From: an uncultured Acidobacteriota bacterium
Lineage (GTDB): Bacteria; Acidobacteriota; Thermoanaerobaculia; Thermoanaerobaculales; Sulfomarinibacteraceae
NCBI GenBank assembly: GCA_963823445.1
Contig: CAWGLT010000010.1
Location: 2,760 to 66,759, forward strand
Direction: 5' to 3'
DNA: 64,000 bases
The position numbers and the translations under genes were made by a program. Positions 2,806-57,974 of the stretch are shown here, in pieces; position 1 is the first letter of the stretch; each line of letters begins with the position of its first letter. Below the pieces are notes generated by a model. The model did not search any database. It was not told the DNA's origin and was given only the letters and a program-made list of their open reading frames with translations.

Positions 2806-4191
2806 GTGGAGGCGGAGATGCAGCAACCAGGCCACATACTGATCGTTGACGACGACGAAGATGTCCTGTTTGCGGCTGAGATGCTGCTCGGAGAGCATGT
2901 CAGCCAGGTCCGAACCGAGACCAAACCCGAACGCCTGCCGGAGCTTTTGGCCGGAGAGCGCTTCGACCTCGTCCTGCTCGACATGAACTTCGTCGAGGAC
3001 CTCACCAGCGGCCAGGAGGGATTGCTCTGGCTCGACCGTATTCTCAAGCTCGATGCAACCATGAGCGTCGTGATGATCACCGCCTATGGAGACATCGAGT
3101 TGGCGGTACAGGCGATCAAGAAGGGTGCCTGCGACTTCATCGTCAAACCGTGGCAGAACGAGAAGCTGCTGGCCACGGCATTCGCCGCTTTGTCGCTGTG
3201 CCGCTCTCGCCGCGAGGCCCAGACGCTGCGTTCGCGCCAGCAGCGACTCAGCGCCGACCTCGATCAGCCGTACCAGGACTTTGTCGGCGACGCGCCGCCG
3301 ATCCGGCAGGTCCGGGAGGTCATCGACAAGGTCGCGACCACCGAGGCCAATGTGCTGATCACCGGCGAGCACGGTACCGGCAAGGAGCTGGTGGCGCGGG
3401 CGGTCCACCGGCGCTCGCACCGTGCCGGCGAGGTCTTTGTCAGCGTCGACGTGGCAGCACTCAGCGACACTCTGTTCGAGAGCGAGCTATTCGGCCATGT
3501 CAAGGGCGCCTATACCGATGCCCGGGAGAGTCGGCCCGGCCGTTTCGAGCTGGCCTCGGGCGGGACCCTGATGCTGGACGAGATCGGCAACCTGTCGCCG
3601 GCCTTGCAGGCCAAGCTGCTGACCGTCCTGCAGAGTCGCAAGGTCACGCGGCTCGGCTCGGCCACCGCCCACGAGATCGACATCAGACTGATCTGTGCCA
3701 CCAACGTCTGCCTCCCGGACAAGGTGGCTCAAGGTGAGTTCCGTGAGGATCTTCTGTACCGCATCAACACGATCGAGATCCCCCTGCCGCCGCTGCGCCG
3801 GCGCCGAGAGGATATCCCGGCCTTGGCTCATCACTTTCTGACCCTCTACTCCCGCAAGTATCAACGTCAGATCACCGGCATCGGCTCGGCTACCCTCAAC
3901 AAGCTGCGCGCCTACCACTGGCCCGGCAACGTCCGCGAGCTGCAGCACGCGATCGAGCGGGCGGTGATCATGAGCAGCTCGACCTCACTGCAACCCGGTG
4001 ACTTCTCGTTCGCTGACAGCAGCGACGGAGGTCCGAGCCTGCCGCTCGACACCTTCAACATGGAGGAGATCGAGGCGGTGGTCATCCGCAACGCCCTGGC
4101 CCACTTCGGCGGCAACATCAGCAGAGTCGCCCGTGAGCTCGGGATCAGCCGCCCGGCCCTCTATCGAAAGCTCGAACGCTATGAGCTCTGA
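2806..4191 (+). CDS. sigma54-dependent (NtrC family) response regulator
   Basis: Receiver (IVDDDE, LLDMNF), GEHGTGKE Walker A, ESELFGHVKGAYTDA, WPGNVRELQH, Fis HTH; start may be ATG 2818. Confidence 0.95.
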   Translation: MEAEMQQPGHILIVDDDEDVLFAAEMLLGEHVSQVRTETKPERLPELLAGERFDLVLLDMNFVEDLTSGQEGLLWLDRILKLDATMSVVMITAYGDIELAVQAIKKGACDFIVKPWQNEKLLATAFAALSLCRSRREAQTLRSRQQRLSADLDQPYQDFVGDAPPIRQVREVIDKVATTEANVLITGEHGTGKELVARAVHRRSHRAGEVFVSVDVAALSDTLFESELFGHVKGAYTDARESRPGRFELASGGTLMLDEIGNLSPALQAKLLTVLQSRKVTRLGSATAHEIDIRLICATNVCLPDKVAQGEFREDLLYRINTIEIPLPPLRRRREDIPALAHHFLTLYSRKYQRQITGIGSATLNKLRAYHWPGNVRELQHAIERAVIMSSSTSLQPGDFSFADSSDGGPSLPLDTFNMEEIEAVVIRNALAHFGGNISRVARELGISRPALYRKLERYEL

Positions 4192-5542
4192 GCTTCTCCG
4201 CAGCTTCCGCTTTGTAGTGGCGTTACGGATCACGCTGATTGTCGCCACGGCGTTGCTCCTTGCGGCCCTCCTGAGCGGACCCCGCCATGCCACAAGCCTG
4301 CTGTGCTGTCTCCTGCTCGCCGGCCAGGCATGGTCCCTGGTGCGCTACGTGGAAACCAGCACCCGTCAGGTCGACCAGATGCTCGGCTGCATCGAAAGTG
4401 ACGATCTGACGCTCCGCCCGGCCGGGCTGCCGGGCGGTCCGGCCTTTGTCCGGCTGCAGTGCCGGATCGATCGGGTATTGAACAGCTTTCGTGAGCTCCG
4501 GCTGAGCCGGGAGGAGCACCTGCAATCCCTGCTTGCCGTCGTCCGGCACATCGGTATCGGGGTCATCTCGTTTCACGAGGATGGTGCAGTCGAGCTCATC
4601 AACCCGGCAGCCAACACACTGCTCGGCATCCCCGTGTTGCGCAACATTGACGATCTGGCCGGGGTCCATCAGAAACTGCACAGTCGGCTCAGGGAATTGA
4701 CCCCTGGACAGCGCGACTTGGTGATCGTCACTGTCGACGGGGAGCAGCGGCAGCTGGCACTGTTTGCCTCCGAGCTGCGCCAGCACAGGAAGCACCTGAA
4801 TCTCATCACCATCCAAAACATCGGTCCGGAACTCAACGAGAGAGAGAACGAGGCGTGGCAGGATCTGATCCGGGTCCTGACCCACGAGATCAGGAACTCC
4901 CTGACACCGATCTCCTCTCTCGCTGCCAGTGTCGAGCAGCATTTCGCCGGGGATACCGATGATCCTCCGGCAGCGCTGACTCCGGGGCGGCGGAAGAAGA
5001 TCCGGGAGGCGCTCAGAGTGATCCAACGGCGCAGCCAGGGGTTGCTGCAGTTCGTCGACACCTACCGCGATCTTGCCCACCTGCCCCGCCCGGAGTTGCA
5101 GCTGTGCCGAGTGCAGGAGCAGTTCGACGAGCTGGAGCGGCTGGTCACTCCACAGATTGCCGACCAGGCGGTGACGCTCAGAACCTCGGTGACTCCCGAA
5201 AGCATGCGCATCACCGCCGATCCCAGAATGATCGGTCAGGTACTGCTCAATCTCACCCTCAACGCCATCGATGCCACTGCCGAGCGTGATGATGCCGAGG
5301 TGCTGCTGGCCGCTGTGATCGATCGGCAGGGACGACGTCTCATCCGGATCAGCGACAACGGCCACGGCATCGCTGCCGAGTCGCTGGAGAAGGTGTTCAT
5401 CCCGTTCTACAGCACCAAGAGGACCGGCACCGGTATCGGCCTCAGCCTGTCACGCCAGATCATGCGCCGACATGGAGGCGACATCACCGTGGTTTCGGAG
5501 CCGGGCGCCGGCGCCACCTTCACTCTGCGCTTCGCTCAGTAG
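4181..5542 (+). CDS. NtrY-like sensor histidine kinase, copy 2
   Basis: Same motifs as 36-1397; ATG overlaps the regulator 3' end. Confidence 0.93.
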   Translation: MSSELLRSFRFVVALRITLIVATALLLAALLSGPRHATSLLCCLLLAGQAWSLVRYVETSTRQVDQMLGCIESDDLTLRPAGLPGGPAFVRLQCRIDRVLNSFRELRLSREEHLQSLLAVVRHIGIGVISFHEDGAVELINPAANTLLGIPVLRNIDDLAGVHQKLHSRLRELTPGQRDLVIVTVDGEQRQLALFASELRQHRKHLNLITIQNIGPELNERENEAWQDLIRVLTHEIRNSLTPISSLAASVEQHFAGDTDDPPAALTPGRRKKIREALRVIQRRSQGLLQFVDTYRDLAHLPRPELQLCRVQEQFDELERLVTPQIADQAVTLRTSVTPESMRITADPRMIGQVLLNLTLNAIDATAERDDAEVLLAAVIDRQGRRLIRISDNGHGIAAESLEKVFIPFYSTKRTGTGIGLSLSRQIMRRHGGDITVVSEPGAGATFTLRFAQ

Positions 5543-18108: not shown

Positions 18109-18703
18109 ACAGATCCCGGGCGGATTCGAGCACATCGTCTCGGAAGTACTTGCTGAGGCTTGCCGGGGTGTGAAGATCGACAGGTTTGCCGAGAATCTCG
18201 GCCAGTTCGTCCTGGATTGTGATGAAACCGAATCCGGGTGTCTCGCCCGGTTTGAACTCCACGAGAACGTCAATGTCGCTCTCCGGCCGGTGGTCGTTGC
18301 GGAGCACCGAACCGAAGAGCGCCAATCGGCGGATGTTCCAACGAGTGCAGACGTCAGCGATCTCCGAAAGGACCGACTCGTCGAACGGAAGCGGGGAGTC
18401 CGAGTCGGCGATGGTTTCCGATTGAAAAACGCTGGTCGGGCGGTCGCGTCCCGGGGCCGTCATCAGCTCTTCGCGAATGACTCGCCGCAGGATCGCCTCG
18501 ATGGGCTCGGTCTTCGACTCGATGAATTCGCGCAGTGCCTGGTTCATCAGGGTCTGGTAGTTTCCTCCGCCGGCGAGGTGGACCTGCTCTTTGAACCAGG
18601 CGAGTACGTCGGCATCGATTCTGATAGTGATCCGGGTTTTCCCTGGTGGTAGTTTGACCGCGGGGCCGCGCTTGGCTTTGCTGAAATCGTAATCGTCTTT
18701 CAT
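18095..18703 (-). CDS. BrnA-like antitoxin domain fused to MNT nucleotidyltransferase antitoxin
   Basis: N: YDFSKAKRG...KTRITIRIDADVLAWFK...YQTLMNQALR; C: LFGSVLRND..PESDIDVLVEF...GKPVDL. Confidence 0.85.
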   Translation of the reverse strand: MKDDYDFSKAKRGPAVKLPPGKTRITIRIDADVLAWFKEQVHLAGGGNYQTLMNQALREFIESKTEPIEAILRRVIREELMTAPGRDRPTSVFQSETIADSDSPLPFDESVLSEIADVCTRWNIRRLALFGSVLRNDHRPESDIDVLVEFKPGETPGFGFITIQDELAEILGKPVDLHTPASLSKYFRDDVLESARDLYDAA

Positions 18704-18709
18704 GGTTTT

Positions 18710-18738
18710 AATGTATGTACGAATATGCACTGTGTCAA
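18710..18738 (-). promoter_or_regulatory. sigma70-type promoter of the TA operon, probably leaderless
   Basis: TTGACA-N17-TACATT followed by only 6 nt before the ATG; no SD. Confidence 0.65.
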
Positions 18739-18769
18739 GGATTCAATGAAAGGTCTCCATGAAATTGTC

Positions 18770-19075
18770 GCGTTGCGACGGGATGAAATCTGCGGTGATC
18801 TGCGCTGTCTGCGGTTTTTCCGTGCGACGACTTCGCGCCCCCTTTGTGACTTTGCGCCTTTGCGCTTGCGACGGTGCGATGTCTCCGTGCCTCTGTGTGT
18901 CTCTGTGGTGAAGTCACGGGCGCCCAGGTACTCGAGTGCGTCCACCAGGAACAAAATCGGGACAAGGGTTCACCGTGCCGGGTGGTGCCAAGATCTCTCG
19001 GCGAAGCGGAGCATTCGTGTGCGGCTCTGACGGGCAGGCTGGAAGCCCGCCCCCACAATGTGCGCTCAACCAGGT
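18770..19075. repeat. Partial CATCGCA/TGCGATG mosaic cassette plus a REP-like palindrome
   Basis: CTTTGCGC-type 8/9-mers, TGCGATG; GGCAGGCTGGAAGCCCGCCCCCACA also present inverted in the 296-bp unit at 54.6 kb. Confidence 0.7.
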
Positions 19076-19086
19076 TGATCACAGGA

Positions 19087-22000
19087 TCAGTAGAAGTCAT
19101 GACTCTCCAATTTCGTATCGGCCTCGACCTTTTCGAAGCGTTGAGCCTTGACCGATAATGTCCCGTCGGTTTTCTGTAGTGGGCCCTCGACGAGGATGAC
19201 TGGGGTGCTTACCAAGAAAGGCCGATGTTCTCTAAATAAGTCGGGTCGGATAATCGTCTGCACCATCCCGGTCTCGTCCTCCATGGTCAAAAACGTAAAC
19301 CCCTTCGCGGTCCCCGGCCGCTGCCTCACGATCACCGCCCCGGCAACCCTCACAATATCGTCGTCCTTCATGCCCTCGAGCGCCGACACCGGCACCGCTC
19401 CCCGCCGCTCGAGCTCGGGCCTCAGGTAGGCCATGAGGTGCGGACCGGTGGTGAGGTGGAGGCCGGAGTAGTCGGCGACGGTGGACTCGAGCTTGGTCAT
19501 CTCGGGCAGGGGGGACTTCTTCTCGGGGGCAGCTTGGCGAAGAGCGAGCCGTCGCGGCCGACGACCTCTGAGACCTGCCAGAGAGCCTCGCGGCGGGAGA
19601 GACCGAGTGAGCCCAGGGCGCCGACGTGGGCGAGGCGTTCGAGCTGGTCGGAGGAGAGGCCGCAGCGGCCGGTGAGATCGGCGGTGTCGGCGAAGGGGCG
19701 GATGGCCTGCTCGCGCTCGATGGTCTCGCCCATGGCCTTCTTGATGCCGTGGACAAAGCGCAGCCCGATGCGGACGCCGCCCGATTCCCAGCGGCAGCGC
19801 CAGCCCGAGCGGTTGACGTCGACCGAACGGAAGGCGACGCCGTGGCGCTGGCCGTCCTTGACCAGGGTGGCGGGGTGATAGAAGCCCATGGGCCAGGCGT
19901 TGAGCAGGCTGGCGTAGAAGGCGGTGGGGTGGTGGCGCTTGAGGTAGGCCGAGGCATAGACAATGAGGGCGAAGGAGGCCGAGTGCGACTCGGGGAAGCC
20001 GTAGAGGGCGAAGGAGGTGATGGCCTTGACGATCTCTTCCTGGGCCGCGGGTTTGATGCCCTTGAGGGCCATGCCGGCGCGGAGCTTGGCCTCGATGGAC
20101 ACCATCCGCTCGCGCGAGCGTTTGAAGCCCATGGCGCGGCGCAGCTCTTCGGCTTCGCCGCCGGAAAAGCCCGCCGCCACCATGGCGATGCGCAGCAGCT
20201 GCTCCTGGAAGAGCGGCACGCCGAGGGTGCGCGCGAGCACGGGCTCGAGGCTCGGGTGGGGGTAGGTGACGGCCTCGCGGCCCTGGCGGCGTTCGAGATA
20301 GGGGTTGGTCATGTTGCCGGCGATGGGGCCGGGGCGGATGATGGCGACCTGGACGACGAGGTCGTAGAAGTTTCTCGGCTTGTTGCGCGGCAGCGACGCC
20401 ATCTGCGCGCGGCTCTCGATCTGGAAGACCCCGGCGGTGTCGGCGGCGCGGATCATCTCGTAGGTTTTGGGGTCGTCGGGCGGCAGGTGGGCGAGGTCGA
20501 TCTCGACGCCTTCGTTGGTGCGGATCATGGGGATGGCCTGCTCGAGGGCGTCGAGCATCCCGAGACCGAGGAGGTCGACCTTGACGATCCCGAGATCGGC
20601 GCAGTCGTCCTTGTCCCACTGGATGACGGTGCGGTTCTCCATGGCGGCGGGCTCGAGGGGGACCACCTCGTCGAGCCGGCCCTGGGCGACCACCATCCCG
20701 CCCGAGTGCTGGCCCAGGTGGCGGGGGAGGTTCTGAATCTCCCACCACAGCCGTTTGAAGTGCTCGACCCGGGTCGAGGTGGGGTCGAGGCCGACGGCGG
20801 CGAGCTCGGTGTCGAACGAGCGGGCGCCGTCTTTGAACTCCGATGCGGCGTGGTAGCCGAGGCGCTTGGAGAGCCGGCCGACCTGGTCGAGGTCGAAGCC
20901 GAGGGCCTTGCCGACTTCGCGCGCCGATGAGCGGGCGCGGTAGGTGGAGACCACCGCGGTCATGGCGGCGCCGTGCGGGCCGTAGCGTTGATAGACGTGC
21001 TGGATGACCTTCTCGCGCTGGTCGCCCGAGGGCAGGTCGAGATCGATGTCGGGCCACTCGCCGCGCTCCTCGGAGAGGAAACGCTCGAAGAGCAGCTCCA
21101 TCTTCACCGGGTCGACGGCGGTGATGGACAGGGCGTAGCAGACGGCGGAGTTGGCGGCCGAGCCGCGGCCCTGGGCCATGATGCCCTCGCGCTGGCAGAA
21201 CCGGACGATGTCCCAGACGATGAGGAAGTAGCCCGCGAGATCGAGCTTTTCGATGAGGTTGAGCTCCTTCTCGATCTGGGCCTGGGCGCGGGCGGTCAGG
21301 GGCCGGTAGCGGGCGCGGGCGCCGTTCCAGGTGATCTGGCGGAGGTGGGAGATGGGGGTCTCGGTGACGGGCAGCGGGTAGTCGGGGAAGCGGTAGCCGA
21401 GATCGGACAGGGTGAACTCGAGCCGGTCGGCGAGCTCGGCCGCGGCGCGGACCGCGCGGGGGTGGTCGGCGAAGAGCGCTTCGACCTCGCGGGGCGAGCG
21501 CAGGTGGCGCTCGCGCTGGGCCTCGACGATGGCGCCGGCGCCATCGAGGGTGACGCCCTCGCGGATGCAGGCGAGGACATCGGCAAGCTCTTTGGTTTCG
21601 CGGCGGGCGTAGCGGATCCCGCCGGTGGCGACGACGGGCAGGCGGAGCCTGCGGGCGAGTGAGAGCATGGCGGTGTTGCGGTGCTCCTCGTCGCGGAGGT
21701 GGTGGCGCTGGATCTCGACGTGGAGCCGGCCGGGGAAGAGGGCGGCGAGGCGCTCGAGCTCGCGGCGGCCGGCGTCGAGCCCGCGGTGGAGGAGGCGCTG
21801 GTTGATGAGGCCCTCGGCGCCGCCGGTGAGGCAGTGCAGGCCCTCGGCGTAGACCGCGACATCAGTCATGGTGGCGCGGGCCTTGCCCTTGGGCCGGCCG
21901 CGGGCGGCCTCGGTGAGGAGGCGGCAGAGGTTGGTGTAGCCGCGGCGGTCCGCCGCTAATAAGGTCAAGCGGGGCAGAGGCGTGCCGGGTGGCGGTGGCG

Positions 22001-22350
22001 GCGGTACCAGGCCGAGAGGACCTCGGGGCGGCGAATTTTGAATTCTTAATTTTGAATTCTTAATTACATCGCATTCGGCGCTGGGGTGGGCTTGCGATGG
22101 TAATTGAGAATTAAGAATTGAGAATTGAGAATTTGCGCCGTCGTCGAGGACCACCTCGGCCCCGACCAGCGGCTTGATTCCCGCCTCACGCGCCGCTTTC
22201 CAGAAGCGGGGGGCGCCGGAGAGGGTGTTGCGGTCGATGAGGGCGACGGCGGGGAGGTTGAGCTCAACCGCGCGGTCGACGAGGTCTTCGGGTTGCGAGG
22301 CGCCTTCGAGGAAGGAGAAGGCCGAGGCGCAGTGGAGCTCGGCGTACTTC
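19087..22350 (-). CDS. dnaE2: Error-prone DNA polymerase DnaE2 (ImuC); frameshift near 19527, in-frame repeat insertion in the PHP domain
   Basis: YAELHCASAFSFLEGAS, GRGSAANS, PDIDLD, PRHLGQHSGG, YGFPESH; C-terminal OB (RQRPGTAKG) and SHDFY tail in the other frame; ORF track gives start 22352. Confidence 0.9.
22033..22133. repeat. AT-rich heptamer palindromic element inside dnaE2
   Basis: (AATTYTN)n-CATCGCA-spacer-TGCGATG-(NARAATT)n, encodes NSQFSILNSQLPSQ...IKNSKLRIQNS. Confidence 0.9.
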
Positions 22351-22364
22351 ATCGGTCAGGGTTC

Positions 22365-23076
22365 ATCGCGCATCGCAGGGTTGAACCGCGAGGACGCAAA
22401 GGGCGCAAAGCATCGCACCATCGCAGATATAAAACGCAGAGGCGCAGAGACGCAGAGACATCGCAAACACAGAGGCATCGCAACGTCGCAGGTTTGAAAC
22501 GCAAAGACGCAAAGGCGCGAAGACATTGCAAAGGGCATCGCAATTTTGATTCATCGCAGCATCGCACTCGATCCGGACGGCGGAGTTGTCGGTTTCGATT
22601 CTGGAAGGCAGGCAGGATGCCTGCCCCACAACGGGCCGAGGGTCTTGGGATGTCGATAGAACCCGGATCCAAGACGCCTGCATCAAAGCGTGCGGTGCAG
22701 GCGGGACGCCCGCACTACAAAGGCGCTCGATCCATTGTAGGGGCGAGCTTCCAGCTTGCCTTTCAGAGACCTCGATGCTGGCCTCATTCTTTCGGTCTGC
22801 ACGGGGGTGGCGATGCCGTCCAATCCACTGAGGCCGGGCGGGCGCGCCGTAGGTGCGACCCGAAGTCCGAAAGGTCGATTCGACAAACGCGGGCGTTTGG
22901 AGATCGGCCTTTCGGGCTTCGATGCCACGGCTGCAAGCCGGGGCTGCCCGGCCGGTTAGTCTCGAATCACCGTTGCGATGCCTCTGCGCCTCTGCGTCTC
23001 TGCGTCTCTGCGTTAAAACTGCGATGGTGCGATGTCTTTGCGCACTTTGCGTCTTCGCGGTGAAAAAATGCGATGC
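22365..23076. repeat. CATCGCA/TGCGATG mosaic palindromic cassette A with about 100-bp imperfect terminal inverted arms and REP-like core
   Basis: Left arm ACGCAAAG/ACGCAGAG units separated by CATCGCA, mirrored on the right; GTAG-tagged hairpin pair inside. Confidence 0.85.
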
Positions 23077-23084
23077 CCGCCGCA

Positions 23085-24695
23085 TCAGTCGTACATCCCA
23101 TCGGCGAACCAGTCGCCGGTCTGGCGATCGCGGTAGATGCGGTAGAGGCGGCCGCCGGAGAGCTCGACATCCCAATAGTCGCGCTCGACGGGGCGTTCGC
23201 TCCACCAGCCGTCCTCGAGGGACCACGGCCCGGCGGCAACGCGGATGAGACCCTGAATCCTGGGAGTCGCTCCGGGCTCGGAGGAGACGGAGACCAGGCG
23301 GCAATTCTTAATTTTTAATTTTGAATTCTTAATTGGGTTCTCCGGGGTGGCAGAGGGAGCTTGCGATGGTAATTGAGAATTAAGAATTAAAAATTGAGAA
23401 TTCTCTTCGTCATTGACCTCCTCAGTAATGACCTCGAGCGGCACCGACGGCCGCAGGACGCGGATGGCGAGAAGTCCTCGTCCGTTCTTGGGTTCGCGGC
23501 GAAGTTTGGGCGCCGGCGGGGGATCGAAGGTGGTGGTGTCGTAGCGTTCGGGGAGGTGGCCGTCGGAGACCCGCGGCGCGCCGACGTTCTCCGGGCCGAT
23601 CCGGCCGGCGATCCGGGCCATGGCGGCGGCGAGCTTGTCGGGGTGGATCTCGGGGGCGCCGAAGAGGGTGAGCTGGCCGCGCCGCGGCCGGTTGGGGTGG
23701 ACGAAGCAGGCGAAGGCCGCCACCGCGGCGTCGGGCGGGTGGGCCTCGAGCTCGAGCCGGATGAGGGCGACGAGGGCGTCGACGTCGCGGGTCGGGGCGG
23801 GCAAGCGGATGGCGCGGCGGGCGCTGCCCTCGGGCTCGAGCGCGAGCTCGATCTCGAGCAGGGCGCAGGCGAGATCGTGCGCCTCGAGCCGGCGCCGGAT
23901 CCGATCGAGGAGCTGGCGGACGGCGGCGAGGAGCGGGTCGACGGTGACCACCGGCCACTCGAACTCCATGCCCTCGGTCAGGGTCGGCGCCGGCTGGTGC
24001 GGCACCAGGGGTTGGGGATCGATGCCGCGGGCGGATTGGTGGGCCGCGGCGCCCGCCGGGCCGAGCCGGCTCGCGACCCGGTCGGCGGGCAGCCGGGCGA
24101 GACCGCCGAGGGTGGTGACGCCCCAGCGGCCGAGGGTCTCGGCGAGGCGGCGCTCGAGCCGGAGGTGGCGCAGGGGCAGGGCGGCGAGGAAGGCGGTTTC
24201 ACCACCCGGGGGCACCACCGTCGGCGAACCGGGCTGGCGGGCGGCGATGCGGGACGCGAGCTTGTTGGCGGCGATGCCGACGCGGATCGGCAGAGCCATG
24301 GAAGTCGCGGTGACCTCGGCGGCCTGGCCGAGATCGCGCTCGCCGTCGTAGAGCCGGTGCATCCCGTCGACATCGGCGAAGACGAGATCGAGCTCGGCGT
24401 CCTCGACCCGGGGCGAGAGGCTCCAGGCGGTCTCGAGAAGGGCTTCGTGGGCCGAGTTTTCGCAGCCCGGATCGCGACCGCGGGCGAGCAGGGCGGGGAG
24501 GATGCCGCGCGCCTGGGCCATGCTCATCCCCGGCTTGACCCCGGCCTTGCGCGCCGGGCGCGAGGCGGCGACGACGCGGGCGGCGGCGCCGTTGCCCTCG
24601 CAGATGACGACGATCTCGCCGGTGAGCTCGGGCTCCGCGCGGAGCCTCGCCGCGAGGGGGAAGAGGGGGACGTAGAGGCAGGCGATGCGGGTCAT
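23085..24695 (-). CDS. imuB: ImuB, catalytically inactive Y-family polymerase, with in-frame repeat insertion
   Basis: RIACLYVPLFPL, SPRVED, AANKLASRIAA, GPWSLEDGWW..ERDYW; lies between imuA and dnaE2. Confidence 0.9.
   Translation of the reverse strand: MTRIACLYVPLFPLAARLRAEPELTGEIVVICEGNGAAARVVAASRPARKAGVKPGMSMAQARGILPALLARGRDPGCENSAHEALLETAWSLSPRVEDAELDLVFADVDGMHRLYDGERDLGQAAEVTATSMALPIRVGIAANKLASRIAARQPGSPTVVPPGGETAFLAALPLRHLRLERRLAETLGRWGVTTLGGLARLPADRVASRLGPAGAAAHQSARGIDPQPLVPHQPAPTLTEGMEFEWPVVTVDPLLAAVRQLLDRIRRRLEAHDLACALLEIELALEPEGSARRAIRLPAPTRDVDALVALIRLELEAHPPDAAVAAFACFVHPNRPRRGQLTLFGAPEIHPDKLAAAMARIAGRIGPENVGAPRVSDGHLPERYDTTTFDPPPAPKLRREPKNGRGLLAIRVLRPSVPLEVITEEVNDEENSQFLILNSQLPSQAPSATPENPIKNSKLKIKNCRLVSVSSEPGATPRIQGLIRVAAGPWSLEDGWWSERPVERDYWDVELSGGRLYRIYRDRQTGDWFADGMYD
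23301..23402. repeat. AT-rich heptamer palindromic element inside imuB
   Basis: Encodes NSQFLILNSQLPSQ...IKNSKLKIKNC; same length, orientation and frame as the dnaE2 copy. Confidence 0.9.
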
Positions 24696-24704
24696 GAGCG
24701 GGGA

Positions 24705-25870
24705 AAAAACGCAAAGGCGCAGAGGCGCAAAGGCGCAGAGGTATCGCACCATCGCACGGAGAAACCGCAGATAGCGCAGATAGACGCAGATGACGTCGCA
24801 CATCGCAATTCAACGCAGAGACGCAGAGACGCAGAGACGCAGAGGCATCGCACCATCGCAAAGGGGACACGGATTTCACGGATCAGCACGGATTTGGTCC
24901 TCGGGAGGCGGAGTCGGCGACGGTCTCCGACCGCCGCCACCGTGGAATCGCCCGGCCGCTCCAAAAACGAGTTTTTGTCCCGTCCGGTCGATCCCACGGC
25001 CCGCTGTGCCAGGGGCACAGCGGCTCCGCCTTGGCGATGTCGGGACAGTAGTTTTGAAGATTCGAATGCCTTTGTAGCGCCGGCGTCTCGCCGGCGATGG
25101 GACATCGGTAGAATCCGGATCCAATACGCCCGCATTACAAAGGACCGATCGCCATTGTGTTGGGGGGTAGACTTGTGCCCCGCTGTCACCCTGAGCGAGG
25201 GAGCCTGACGACCGAGTCGATAGCTCGGAGAGCGACGTAGGCAGCGTCCCCCGAGGGTGCGATGATCGCGATTCCTGGGGCGTCGCTCCGAACTTCGGGG
25301 ATTCTTCGACTCGCTACGCTCGCTCAGAATGACAAACTTACCCGGAATGAAAAAATGGCAAGCTGGAAGCTTGCCGCTACAAAGGCGCTCGGCCCGTTGT
25401 AGCGGCAAGCTTCCAGCTTGCCATTCAGAGACCTCACCGTTGGCAATGTCGTTTCTCGTTCTGTCGACCCGCGCGGGCCCTGGATAGCTCAGGGTGACAG
25501 TGGGGGATGTCGGCGACCTCGAATCCATCGAGGCCGGGCGGGCGCGCCGTAGGCGCGACCCGAGGTCAAGGAAGACCGATCGACAAGCGTGTGCGTTTGA
25601 CGATCGGTCTTGCTTTGCCTCGATGCCACGGTTTCGAACCGTGGCTGTCCGGCCGGTTAGTCTCGAATCAACGCTGCGATGACTTTGCGTCTTTGCGCCT
25701 TTGCGCCTCTGCGTTGAATTGTGATGTGCGATGTCCTGGCGTTCCTTGCGCCCTTGCGGTTCTCTTCTGCGATGACTCTGCGCCCCTGCGTCTCTGCGTC
25801 TCTGCGTTAAATCTCTGATGGTGCGATGTCTTAGCGCCCCTTGCGTCTTTGCGGTTCTCTCCTGCGATGT
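24705..25870. repeat. CATCGCA/TGCGATG mosaic palindromic cassette B
   Basis: ACGCAGAG x4, CACGGATTT units, GTAG REP-like pairs, GTCACCCTGAGCGA...CGCTCAGAATGAC hairpin, shared structured modules. Confidence 0.85.
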
Positions 25871-25880
25871 TCCGACGGGC

Positions 25881-25991
25881 TCACACACAGAACGCGAAAA
25901 CCAAAAAACAGAACCCCAGAGCCGACAGCCCGATGGCCTCGCCGACGATGATGGGAAGATCCTTGATGGCGATTTCAGATGATTTGAACAT
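25881..25991 (-). CDS. Putative 36-aa membrane peptide
   Basis: AAGGAGG RBS, ATG overlapping the imuA end, hydrophobic C-terminal half. Confidence 0.5.
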   Translation of the reverse strand: MFKSSEIAIKDLPIIVGEAIGLSALGFCFLVFAFCV

Positions 25992-26793
25992 GACGTTGCC
26001 TCCTTGAAGATGGTGTTGTCGAAGTGGCGAGCGGCGCCCGAAACGCCGCCTCGGCAGTGGTGAAGACCGTGGCGGCACGGGGTGTCTGTCGGGTTCGCGA
26101 TCCGGTGTGCTTGTCGAGCTCGAGCTGCGCGGTGATGCCGTCGAGAAGACGCAGACCGCCGACGGCGCCCGACCACCGGCCCCGTCCGCTGCCGCTCGTC
26201 AGCACGGCGGTTGCCGCACACCCGCTCAGGCGGTAGGGCGATCCGACGAGGACCACGGCCTGGTGGTTGGCGGCCGAGCGGGAGAGCCGCAGCCAGGCGG
26301 CGAGGGGAGGGCGGCCGAGAACGGGCGGGAGACCGAGATCGAGGGCGACGAGCTTGAAACCGGTGGCGACGAGCATCTCGGCGGCCGCCAACGAGTCATC
26401 GAGGCGCCGGGGGCGCAGCCACAGCAGGCGATCGAGATCGATCCCGGCGGCCGCCGCGGCCTGCGGGTCGAGCTGCGAGCCCTGATCGACGAGGACCGCG
26501 GCCTCCCCGGCGCTGGTCATCTGCTGCAGGGCGGCGATGAGGGTCGAGAAGCGGCCGCAGGAGCCGCGTCCGACGAGCTCGACCAGGGCGCCGCGGGGGA
26601 GCCCGCCGCCGAGGATCTCATCAAAGGTCGCGACCGAGGTGGCGATGGACGCCTCGCGGAGCGTCGCCGCCCGCCGCCTGCCCAGCTCCGACGCGCGGCA
26701 GACGATCCGCCGAACCTCGTCCGGCAGCGTCGCGTGGACCGTGCCGGCATCGGTTGCGGTGGGGGTGTCGGGCCTGGTGTCGGGAGCCTTCAT
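25975..26793 (-). CDS. imuA: ImuA / RecA-like SOS mutagenesis protein
   Basis: DEILGGGLPRGALVELVG, degenerate Walker A, AGIDLDRLLWLRP; GGAGA RBS. Confidence 0.82.
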   Translation of the reverse strand: MKAPDTRPDTPTATDAGTVHATLPDEVRRIVCRASELGRRRAATLREASIATSVATFDEILGGGLPRGALVELVGRGSCGRFSTLIAALQQMTSAGEAAVLVDQGSQLDPQAAAAAGIDLDRLLWLRPRRLDDSLAAAEMLVATGFKLVALDLGLPPVLGRPPLAAWLRLSRSAANHQAVVLVGSPYRLSGCAATAVLTSGSGRGRWSGAVGGLRLLDGITAQLELDKHTGSRTRQTPRAATVFTTAEAAFRAPLATSTTPSSRRQRHVQII

Positions 26794-26829
26794 TGATGTC
26801 TCCGTCGGGAACTTTTCGGGTCCACTTTC

Positions 26830-26858
26830 AGTATAGGTGTAAATAAAGCATAAATCAA
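26830..26858 (-). promoter_or_regulatory. sigma70-type promoter of imuA-imuB-dnaE2
   Basis: TTGATT-N17-TATACT in an AT-rich patch. Confidence 0.65.
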
Positions 26859-27023
26859 CAGGAGGACTCTGAACCGCCGTTCGGTCATGCCGGGGAGAGC
26901 GAGTTAATTCTCTGATTTTGAGACACATGCTAATCCACTTTCGGTTGAACAGCCGACGACGGAGATGTAGAATGACGGATCGAATCGGCGGGCCGGACCG
27001 CCGTCTTTTTTGGGGGGAGTCCA

Positions 27024-27881
27024 GTGGCAAAGATCGTATCCATCGAAGAGATCGCGCCGGCCTTCAAGCGCTACGTTGTCGAGGCGCCCGAGATCGCGCG
27101 CAAGCACCAGGCGGGGCAGTTCGTCATCGTCCTCATGGACGAGCACGCCGAGCGCATTCCGCTCACCATCGCGGACAACGACCCGGAGGCCGGGACCATC
27201 ACCCTCGTGGTGCAGGAGGTCGGCAAGTCGACCATGCAGATGGGCACCATGAAGGCCGGCGACCCCATCCAAGTGGTCGGCCCCCTGGGGAAGCCGACGC
27301 ACATCGAGAACTTCGGCACCTGCGTCTGCATCGGCGGCGGCGCCGGCATCGCGCCCATGCTGCCCATCGCCCGCGCCCTGAAGGAAGCCGGCAACAAGGT
27401 CGTTTCCATCCTCGGCGGCCGCAACGAGGGTCTCGTCATCCTCCGCCCCGAGATGATCGAGGCGTCGCACGAGATGATCTACACCACCGATGACGGCAGC
27501 TTCGGACGCAAGGGCGTCGTCACCGACGCGCTCAAGACCTACATCGAAGAAAACGGCAAGCCGGATCTCGTCATCGCCATCGGCCCGGCGATCATGATGA
27601 AGTTCGTCGCGCTGATGACCAAGGACTACGAGATCCCCACCGTGGTGTCGCTCAACACCATCATGATCGACGGCACCGGGATGTGCGGCGGCTGCCGGGT
27701 GGCGGTCGGCGGCGACAGCAAGTTCGTCTGCGTCGACGGCCCCGAGTTCGACGCCCACGAGGTCGACTTCGATCTCATGATGAAGCGCCAGCGGATCTAC
27801 CTCGAGGAGGAGGAGATCGCGCGCAAGAGGTACCTGGAGCAGCACGCCTGCAGGGCCGCGAACGGGGTGGAGGTGAGCTGA
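27024..27881 (+). CDS. nfnA: NfnA/SudB-like FAD/NAD-binding [2Fe-2S] subunit
   Basis: GQFVI, ERIPLTI, GPLGKP, DGTGMCGGCRV, CVDGPEFD. Confidence 0.88.
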   Translation: MAKIVSIEEIAPAFKRYVVEAPEIARKHQAGQFVIVLMDEHAERIPLTIADNDPEAGTITLVVQEVGKSTMQMGTMKAGDPIQVVGPLGKPTHIENFGTCVCIGGGAGIAPMLPIARALKEAGNKVVSILGGRNEGLVILRPEMIEASHEMIYTTDDGSFGRKGVVTDALKTYIEENGKPDLVIAIGPAIMMKFVALMTKDYEIPTVVSLNTIMIDGTGMCGGCRVAVGGDSKFVCVDGPEFDAHEVDFDLMMKRQRIYLEEEEIARKRYLEQHACRAANGVEVS

Positions 27882-35242: not shown

Positions 35243-35332
35243 TTGAATTTTTAATTTTGAATTCTCAATTTTAAATTTCCAGCGCAAATGCTGTCCGGAA
35301 TTAAGAATTAAAAATTGAGAATTAAAAATTAA
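35243..35332. repeat. AT-rich heptamer palindromic element; supplies the hemE stop
   Basis: AATTTT/AATTCTC arm, spacer, GAATTAA arm. Confidence 0.85.
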
Positions 35333-36388: not shown

Positions 36389-36534
36389 GAAATTCTCAAT
36401 TTTGAATTCTAAATTTTTAATTGACATCGCACGGGTCGACCGACCCCGAAGGAGCAGTCCTGAGATTCTGGAATATCTGATATTCCTCCCAAGAACATTC
36501 CGCAATTAAGAATTAAGAATTGAGAATTAACAAT
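36389..36534. repeat. AT-rich heptamer palindromic element; supplies the hemL stop
   Basis: Heptamer arm-CATCGCA-long spacer-heptamer arm. Confidence 0.85.
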
Positions 36535-54364: not shown

Positions 54365-55680
54365 CCGGCCGCTGGCCCGGACGCTGCCGCTGCCCCCGAC
54401 AGGCTGGAAGCCTGTCGCTACACAGCGGCCGTTCTTGAATGTGTAGCGACAGCCATCCTGGCTGTCGTCGGTGACGTACCCGAACGCGGTACCCGGACGC
54501 TGCCCCGGACGCTGCCCCGGCCGCCGCCCCGGACGGCGTGCGGGAGGGTCGATCCGGCACAATGCCGAACCCGGCACCCCGAGGCGGCGCGGTTTTCCGC
54601 GTGTCCTCATCGGCTTCGGTCCCGTTTCCCACCAGGTTGGGCGGACATTGTGGGGGCGGGCTTCCAGCCTGCCCGTCAGGGTCGTTGGAGTCGGCCGGGC
54701 ATTCCCGAGAGAGTGCGGGGTTTCGGGCACTGTGGGATCCCCGGTTCCCGGCGGCCTGCCTCGTAACCTGGAGAACCAGGCAGAAGCGCGCGTCCCGGGG
54801 GAGCCCGGTACGGCATTGTGCGCAACGGACGGCGTGCGGGAGGGTCGATCCGGCACAATGCCGAACCCGGCACCCCGAGGCGGCGCGGTTTTCCGCGTGT
54901 CCTCATCGGCTTCGGTCCCGTTTCCCACCAGGTTGGGCGGACATTGTGGGGGCGGGCTTCCAGCCTGCCCGTCAGGGTCGTTGGAGTCGGCCGGGCATTC
55001 CCGAGAGAGTGCGGGGTTTCGGGCACTGTGGGATCCCCGGTTCCCGGCGGCCTCCCTCGTAACCTGGAGAACCAGGCAGAAGCGCGCGTCCCGGGGGAGC
55101 CCGGTACGGCATTGTGCGCAACGGACGGCGTGCGGGAGGGTCGATCCGGCACAATGCCGAACCCGGCACCCCGAGGGACGCTTCTTTCCCTCCGACCCAG
55201 GGCGGCATCTGCCGCTGCCCCGGACGCTGCCTCTGCCCCCGACAGGCTGGAAGCCTGTCGCTACACAGCGGCCGTTCTTTATTGTGTAGCGACAGCCATC
55301 CTGGCTGTCGTCGGTGACGTGCCCGAACGCGGTACCCGGACGCTGTCGCTGTCGCTGCCCCGGCTGCGGTCGCTGTTCCCGGTTCTGACTGTTCCGGCCT
55401 TCCGGCCCGCTGTGACGCCAAGGCGTCCCGGCGGCCCGGCGTCGCCCCATCGGCGGGGTCGCGTAGGTGGTGAATTGGAAGGGCTGCGACCCCGCCGATG
55501 GGACGCCGGCGGCCTGCTTCTGAGCCGGAAGAGCCAGGCAGAGGCGCGCCTCCCGGGGGAGCCCGGTACGGCATTGTGCAGTGCGCACCGCGTGCCGGAG
55601 GGTCGAACCGGCACAATGCCGAACCCGGCACCCCGAGGGACGCTTCTTTCCCTCCGACCTGGGGCGGCATCTGCCGATCG
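54365..55680. repeat. REP-like cluster with a 296-bp tandem unit
   Basis: Unit starts at 54531, 54827, 55123 (partial), degenerate copy near 55535-55680; GTAG hairpin doublet repeated at about 54378-54505 and 55220-55345. Confidence 0.9.
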
Positions 55681-57876: not shown

Positions 57877-57974
57877 AATTCTCAATTTTGAATTCTTAAT
57901 TCTAAATTGCATCGCATATCCAAGAGGGACGGTTGCGATGTCATTGAGAATTAAGAATTTAGAATTAAGAATTG
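57877..57974. repeat. AT-rich heptamer palindromic element between convergent genes
   Basis: Heptamer arm-CATCGCA-spacer-TGCGATG-heptamer arm. Confidence 0.88.

Follow-up and report, generated by a model that had tools for sequence, protein, structure and literature searches.

How did two AT-rich repeats come to lie in frame inside two genes of the same mutagenesis operon? This question is raised by the window analysed in the present study, a stretch of 64,000 nucleotides (nt) from an uncultured sediment Acidobacteriota bacterium of the Sulfomarinibacteraceae (assembly GCA_963823445.1, contig CAWGLT010000010.1, positions 2,760 to 66,759 of the forward strand), in which imuB and dnaE2 each hold an element made of two arms of heptamer repeats around a spacer. 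An earlier note on this DNA had reported two elements of about 102 base pairs (bp) with matching orientation, frame and length, the dnaE2 copy having both a TGCGATG and a CATCGCA tag and the imuB copy one tag. Both descriptions were confirmed, and the elements are placed as follows.

22034..22133, minus strand: two-armed heptamer element in dnaE2 (residues about 74-107), arms at 22102-22133 and 22034-22065, spacer with the TGCGATG and CATCGCA tags
23303..23402, minus strand: two-armed heptamer element in the ImuB-C domain of imuB (residues about 430-463), arms at 23371-23402 and 23303-23334, one tag

Herein, we consider it rather probable that these inserts are tolerated passengers in predicted flexible loops, kept because the reading frame is under selection, with conversion-like copying renewing their sequence.

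Insertion in frame within predicted loops

Each insert measures 100 nt from arm to arm, with arms of about 4.6 heptamer units each, and the two are identical in orientation and reading phase. Only one of the six frames is open, and it is the coding frame. A random insertion would be expected to be open and in phase in about 1.3% of cases, the 61 other two-armed copies of the genome averaging 0.23 open frames of six. The dnaE2 insert lies in a loop of the PHP domain, predicted to run between strands with a predicted local distance difference test (pLDDT) value below 50 at residues 73-119; a two-residue turn occupies this site in a distant family. The imuB insert also falls in a predicted loop, between two beta-strands of the C-terminal domain (pLDDT below 50). 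These models, which are of modest quality (means of 70 for ImuB and 62 for DnaE2), are consistent with the surface loops that the earlier note had expected.

The junctions between flank and element were found in short-read contigs from two studies with 0-2 differences, no single contig covering an element plus both flanks; one run, X1, may be the source sample. An assembly artefact, for which one could cite that the assembled dnaE2 probably contains one indel error or more, is refuted by these junctions and by inserts at the same sites in dozens of relatives, so that its probability is practically nil, and the misassembly raised earlier as an objection does not apply. The contigs from RNA runs belong to relatives and have no bearing on transcription or excision of the inserts.

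Turnover of the inserts in relatives

First, the reading frame is kept. When the distinct loops are measured from one fixed anchor to the other, 95 of 97 in imuB (49 lengths) and 47 of 48 in dnaE2 (24 lengths) prove to be in frame, in sets that include repeat-free outgroup loops and come from homology searches, which favour intact genes. In addition, 57% of intergenic units would stop in one phase, whereas none of the 71 coding units in that phase does. The suggestion that this frame had been filtered by selection is thus borne out. The same counts bear on contingency tracts, in which gain or loss of a 7-nt unit, by shifting the reading frame, would switch the mutasome off or on. Such slippage is quite improbable here: only 3 of 145 loops are broken, by inspection none through a one-unit slip; slippage is limited because the units are degenerate; and no arm indel appeared in the contigs of two runs, although contigs conceal rare alleles.

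Second, the content of the loops changes. The ImuB loop measures 8-126 amino acids in 119 of 120 homologues, with about ten heptamer types by our reading of the loop listing, and two ImuB homologues that are 82-83% identical to the present one have a loop of only 11 amino acids. We read this listing of 120 homologues as wholesale arm replacement at fixed orthologous sites. The ratio of non-synonymous to synonymous differences (pN/pS) is 0.62 (imuB) and 0.52 (dnaE2) in the inserts, compared with 0.106 and 0.082 in the flanks (8 and 6 disjoint pairs), which points to weak constraint on the insert peptides. The earlier note had proposed that the repeat creates a shared new peptide in two subunits of the mutasome, and this proposal is not supported by the comparison. 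A 34-residue peptide functional in both subunits would agree with a pN/pS below 1 and with the similar peptide that imuB and dnaE2 encode in the same phase in this genome and several congeners; however, the encoded segment varies in length as stated, the peptides of the different heptamers are unrelated, no residue or column is invariant among 29 aligned inserts and the segment is predicted to be unstructured. We regard this function as very improbable.

Two congeners showed other states of these genes. A structured insertion, unrelated and with stops, occupies the imuB loop of G001 (L007); of dnaE2, G007 has only a remnant (G007:C2:173264-173689). These states may mean that the operon is in decay in some congeners, or they may reflect long-read errors.

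Likeness between the two inserts

Third, the inserts of a genome resemble each other. Permutation within clades showed own-genome pairs to have a higher likeness than cross-genome pairs (p about 0.0003, 16 pairs); in a larger set of 29 pairs p was 2e-5, and masking of arms and tags left it at 0.009. The two inserts of G010 share a 29-nt spacer that occurs nowhere else in the 5 genomes searched, and its direction of copying can be suggested: because related spacers occur in congener imuB and not in congener dnaE2, the spacer appears to have been copied from imuB into dnaE2. In G016, a 23-letter pattern is exact only in the two inserts. In the present genome, one 16-mer is found just twice, in the dnaE2 and imuB copies, and, in a ranking of 62 copies as matches to either one, the other comes first or second. 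The differing spacers had been taken earlier to exclude one simple duplication, but the two inserts appear to exchange sequence in relatives.

A genome-wide repeat family

The element had been presented as a repeat shared by dnaE2 and imuB. Its presence in both stands; rather than being specific to them, it belongs to a family spread over the genome, with 226 AT-rich arms at 150 loci; 172 of these arms have a TGCGATG-like tag, and 63 loci are two-armed. The arms are complementary in this genome and often of different heptamer types within one insert in relatives, each genome having one prevailing arm type. Relative to the genes of our own gene caller (3,675 genes, 78% coding), 71 of 89 stop-facing element ends lie within 16 nt of a stop codon, compared with 3 of 35 start-facing ends. 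Convergent gaps hold 29 of 62 elements and divergent gaps 2 of 62, while these classes make up 363 and 501 of the 2,022 background gaps. The TGCGATG tag occurs in 1,472 copies genome-wide, about eight times more densely outside genes, and heads arrays of 7-, 8- and 9-nt units alike. Array length is about 30 nt regardless of unit (median 32 nt for the 182 tagged period-7 arrays). In the related genus of G016, arms are present around the operon and the tag is absent. Apart from the two inserts, the window contains three intergenic two-armed copies of the family.

35246..35330: intergenic two-armed family copy
36391..36528: intergenic two-armed family copy
57877..57973: intergenic two-armed family copy

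Signs of transposition were searched for among these copies. The longest direct repeat in the flanks averaged 3.35 in 62 elements compared with 3.24 +/- 0.11 after shuffling, and no target-site duplication was supported. Outside the arms there was no consensus 4-mer and no GTAG or CGTC end tag, the TGCGATG tag being internal, and none of 15 matches to the Y1 transposase (PF01797) in this 91% complete genome lies within 4 kb of an arm locus. Genes of the PF05635 four-helix-bundle family were considered as partners of the repeat and rejected: of 17 such genes, 2 have an arm locus within 200 nt, all others being more than 1 kb from one, so there is no general link. These genes are themselves a curiosity of the genome, with 19 matches (e.g. 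G000:C13:190172 and C23:419259), most of them near-identical and resembling a mobile unit; most have a common hairpin upstream and a structured repeat downstream.

Concentration at the mutasome operon

Coding copies are rare. Only imuB and dnaE2 carry two-armed copies in frame (2 of 63 two-armed loci), and internal arrays of any kind occur in just 5 of about 3,675 genes: imuB, dnaE2, an E2-type protein and two Ser/Thr kinases. The earlier note had called for such a count, which would remove the operon-specific significance if in-frame copies were common and random. They are rare and non-random, and that objection therefore falls away. The gene at G000:C7:79406-80833, which we take to be a dehydrogenase E2-type protein from its motifs, has one 7-nt and one 8-nt array in frame, in linkers. 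The two kinases (G000:C4:792049 and G000:C23:319240) have in-frame 8-nt arrays in one variable loop, and the matching loop of P0150, a database kinase, is occupied by a two-armed heptamer insert; this kinase loop is, as judged from these sequences, a second recurrent sink for arrays. A broader scan for tandem repeats returned 110 candidates, nearly all of them chance matches in GC-rich genes. The chance of two random genes being neighbours is 0.0005, a figure to be read with the two insertions not being independent events.

The genes and gaps of the host locus are as follows.

25975..26793, minus strand: imuA (RecA-like; without an in-frame array), identified by Pfam upstream of imuB
24693..25974: imuA-imuB gap, a mosaic of repeats from the TGCGATG-tagged family
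23085..24692, minus strand: imuB (Y-family-like, with the ImuB-C domain), Pfam IMS and IMS_C
22353..23084: imuB-dnaE2 gap of 732 nt, a mosaic that combines tagged arrays of 8- and 9-mers with other repeats (12 tags)
19087..22352, minus strand: dnaE2 (error-prone C-family polymerase; 1-nt frameshift in the assembly), Pfam PHP, DNA_pol3_alpha, finger and HHH_6

The three genes in a single orientation, with an ImuB that has a C-terminal beta domain, constitute an imuA-imuB-dnaE2 mutasome operon. PMC6511836 presents ImuB-C as a beta domain and as a candidate partner of DnaE2. A complex prediction of the DnaE2 PHP domain with ImuB-C scored 0.00 and is uninformative either way, and the ImuB-C model had no Foldseek match in the PDB at E<=0.001. 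The Rfam scan of 18500-27100 gave no match at the gathering score, neither a structured RNA nor a self-splicing intron. The dnaE2 frameshift of 1 nt lies near 19527, before the OB-fold; it is likely an assembly error, because contigs from all four runs hold an extra base there (these contigs differ elsewhere too) and the open frames of congener dnaE2 run to about 1,090-1,195 codons. Elsewhere in the window, positions 1-300 and 4146-4445 form a 300-nt duplication of 98% identity with two similar gene pairs, and 54368-55676 holds a 296-nt tandem repeat cluster.

Among 512 windows, TGCGATG reaches its highest density at the operon, with 26 tags per 10 kb compared with a mean of 2.8. While imuB and dnaE2 adjoin without a gap in several relatives, the gap between them is enlarged in most of the repeat-rich ones. 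Within the inserts of this genome, the mRNA strand folds less stably than its complement (-23.9 vs -51.8 and -18.0 vs -34.9 kcal/mol), and the mRNA is the weaker-folding strand in 25 of 27 inserts, while intergenic copies are unbiased (9 of 19). This weaker folding argues against the mRNA hairpin that had been offered earlier as a regulator of mutagenesis. The repeats could instead be selected as dampers of the mutagenic operon at the level of DNA or transcription, with hairpins of the template strand and of the gaps reducing or postponing the synthesis of ImuB and DnaE2, which is nevertheless retained. The tag density, the enlarged gap, the strong fold of the non-coding strand (z -10.4 for -51.8 kcal/mol) and the low synonymous divergence inside the inserts are all in keeping with dampers, and the targeting of repair genes is argued to be hardly fortuitous in the accessible part of PMC3733652. 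However, the arms of one insert are often of different heptamer types, the insert is missing in close relatives, and the strand asymmetry may be explained by avoidance of stop codons. Dampers are therefore, in our estimate, unlikely.

The bias toward these genes extends to relatives, and the conclusions of the present study are independent of the unpublished genomes G063 and G088. In-frame period-7 or period-8 arrays were present in 12 of 30 ImuB and 10 of 29 DnaE2 loci, compared with 0 of 30 DnaE1, 1 of 30 UvrA and 0 of 30 MutS loci, the lone UvrA array being a GC-rich chance run; these are the best-scoring 30 loci per search, a choice that disfavours inserted copies, and match lengths are nearly constant among the full-length matches listed. 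Among the best 80 of 502 ImuB-C loci, 51 arrays were counted in imuB (25 loci, 127 kb) and 33 in dnaE2 (16 loci, 92 kb), and no in-frame array occurred in imuA (46 kb) or in 344 neighbouring open reading frames (ORFs; 270 kb); kin in this set are not independent, and it overlaps the set of 30 loci. At least five different loops hold arrays in different lineages. Elsewhere, 16 of the best 150 of 227 insert-profile hits have a Pfam family, including two PHP domains, one kinase and one poly(A) polymerase/CCA enzyme, and the remainder mostly resemble translated repeats. When congeners were searched with the profile, none of the 7 stop-free long-frame hits inspected among the best 150 of 946 reads as a real gene.

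Such a distribution might arise if the mutasome made or copied arrays preferentially in cis at its own expressed locus, its own genes thereby becoming the hub of the family. The 84 arrays in imuB and dnaE2, set against none in imuA and the 270 kb of neighbours, the 46 arrays in ImuB and DnaE2 against 1 in DnaE1, UvrA and MutS, and the use of several separate loops across lineages would all fit, as would arrays of about 30 nt for a 7-, 8- or 9-nt unit, which a fixed synthesis tract could give. We nevertheless hold this reading doubtful: congeners in which dnaE2 was not found (G003 and G006) or is a remnant (G007) still hold 86-127 arm matches, with the caveat that their assemblies are fragmented and the loss of dnaE2 may be recent. 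A general hot spot at SOS genes was also considered and rejected, the surroundings of recA, lexA, recN and ruvB being at background tag density, while those of uvrB and mfd are raised (7.5-8.5 tags per 10 kb); the genes in this check are presumed to be these, having been picked by motifs. The more specific proposal that ImuB-DnaE2 is a copier of heptamer arrays, laying down templated tracts of about 30 nt mostly at its own operon, with the two loops swapping in step in frame, seems to us rather improbable.

Tolerated passengers as the favoured explanation

Returning to tolerated passengers, we propose the following course of events. The arrays of each loop would trace back to a single colonisation, in an ancestor of the genera rich in repeats, and other ImuB and DnaE2 loops would have been colonised separately in other lineages. 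The arms would then have been swapped wholesale for other types, with each insert probably drawing sequence from its partner and from further members of the family in a manner resembling gene conversion, and only selection on the reading frame is likely to retain the inserts. What may make the operon a sink is that it seems dispensable and, unless DNA is damaged, presumably silent, that ImuB is catalytically dead, and that local copying would feed on the repeats present. The operon looks dispensable. In the genomes G003 (99% complete) and G006 (91%) dnaE2 was not found and in G007 (65%) only the remnant was, all three being repeat-rich, in fragmented assemblies, which break at such repeats. 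The missing dnaE2 in repeat-rich congeners fits a sink and weighs against a requirement for the mutasome in making arrays.

Several observations weigh against this explanation. Many genes are dispensable and have loops, so the specificity to this operon is left unaccounted for, as are the restriction of internal arrays to five genes and their lack in imuA and the 344 neighbouring ORFs. The pN/pS of the inserts is below 1. Synonymous divergence is lower in inserts than in flanks in most pairs, which could reflect constraint on the DNA rather than conversion. With regard to copying, the prevailing arm type of each genome inflates within-genome likeness, the masked test depends on few pairs, several pairs are unlike, and the pair of the present genome has no masked 8-mer in common. 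The local likeness of intergenic copies is also modest (0.21 at less than 3 kb, 10 pairs, and 0.09 at 3-10 kb, compared with 0.13).

Known repeats and significance

Comparison with known systems is based on the parts of each paper that were consulted. The GGGAATC/GGGGAYT repeats of Xanthomonas and Nostoc (PMC4692102) are closest in organisation: their heptamer arrays favour four units, are often paired in inverted orientation, lie mostly outside coding sequence and shortly after stop codons, and seldom occur between divergent genes. The present family shares the 7-nt unit in about four copies, the inverted pairs, the non-coding, stop-proximal location and the scarcity in divergent gaps, and differs in being AT-rich without G-tracts, in its genus-specific TGCGATG tag, and in its many interchangeable units, fixed coding sites and turnover. 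Because its units are AT-rich and lack G-tracts, no quadruplex is involved here. The GTAG/CGTC repetitive extragenic palindromes (REPs) described in PMC3733652 are likewise small palindromes in frame in dnaE2 and other repair genes; the tagged repair genes are sometimes the sole tagged coding sequences of a species, and the ends of the REPs lie near or supply stop codons. In contrast, the present arms are tandem heptamers without an end tag or an adjacent Y1 transposase. Neither the repeat-flanked gene for a REP-associated tyrosine transposase (RAYT) expected of REPs and their paired forms (REPINs) nor the target-site duplication of a MITE (miniature inverted-repeat transposable element) was found, and no candidate for a cognate transposase emerged.

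The earlier note had named Rickettsia palindromic elements as a parallel, which is apt for in-frame insertion, since these too are palindromic repeats translated in frame inside working genes (PMC10969869, as excerpted). Those elements are about 150 bp long with a conserved peptide, and nearly half lie in ORFs of unrelated genes, whereas of the 63 two-armed copies in this genome 2 are coding, both of them in one operon, and the peptide is not conserved. The TAACTGA repeats of Beggiatoaceae, cyanobacteria and Bacteroidetes (PMC4679880) are also AT-rich heptamers whose encoded stops set their presence in ORFs, but the text consulted places them mostly before start codons and seldom in inverted arm pairs.

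A repeat bias toward dnaE2 was noted earlier and is not explained in the portion of PMC3733652 consulted, and no paper on heptamer arrays in imuB or dnaE2 was found in the open-access literature. Beyond that REP account, as far as the same portion extends, are the involvement of imuB, the fixed sites, the arm replacement and the copying between both genes. The present study thus adds fixed orthologous sites at which the arms are replaced wholesale, a measure of frame selection alongside weak constraint on the peptides, and probable copying from one gene to the other.

These findings have several implications. Peptides of the NSQFSILNSQ type in databases are mostly translated repeats, of which users should be warned. 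The loops of ImuB-C and of the DnaE2 PHP domain are marked as tolerant to large natural insertions. With frame-checked orthologous sites across dozens of genomes, the mechanism of turnover can be measured and the tie to the mutasome put to the test, and the recurrent arm replacement addresses the question of how long heptamer repeats originate and spread in bacteria.

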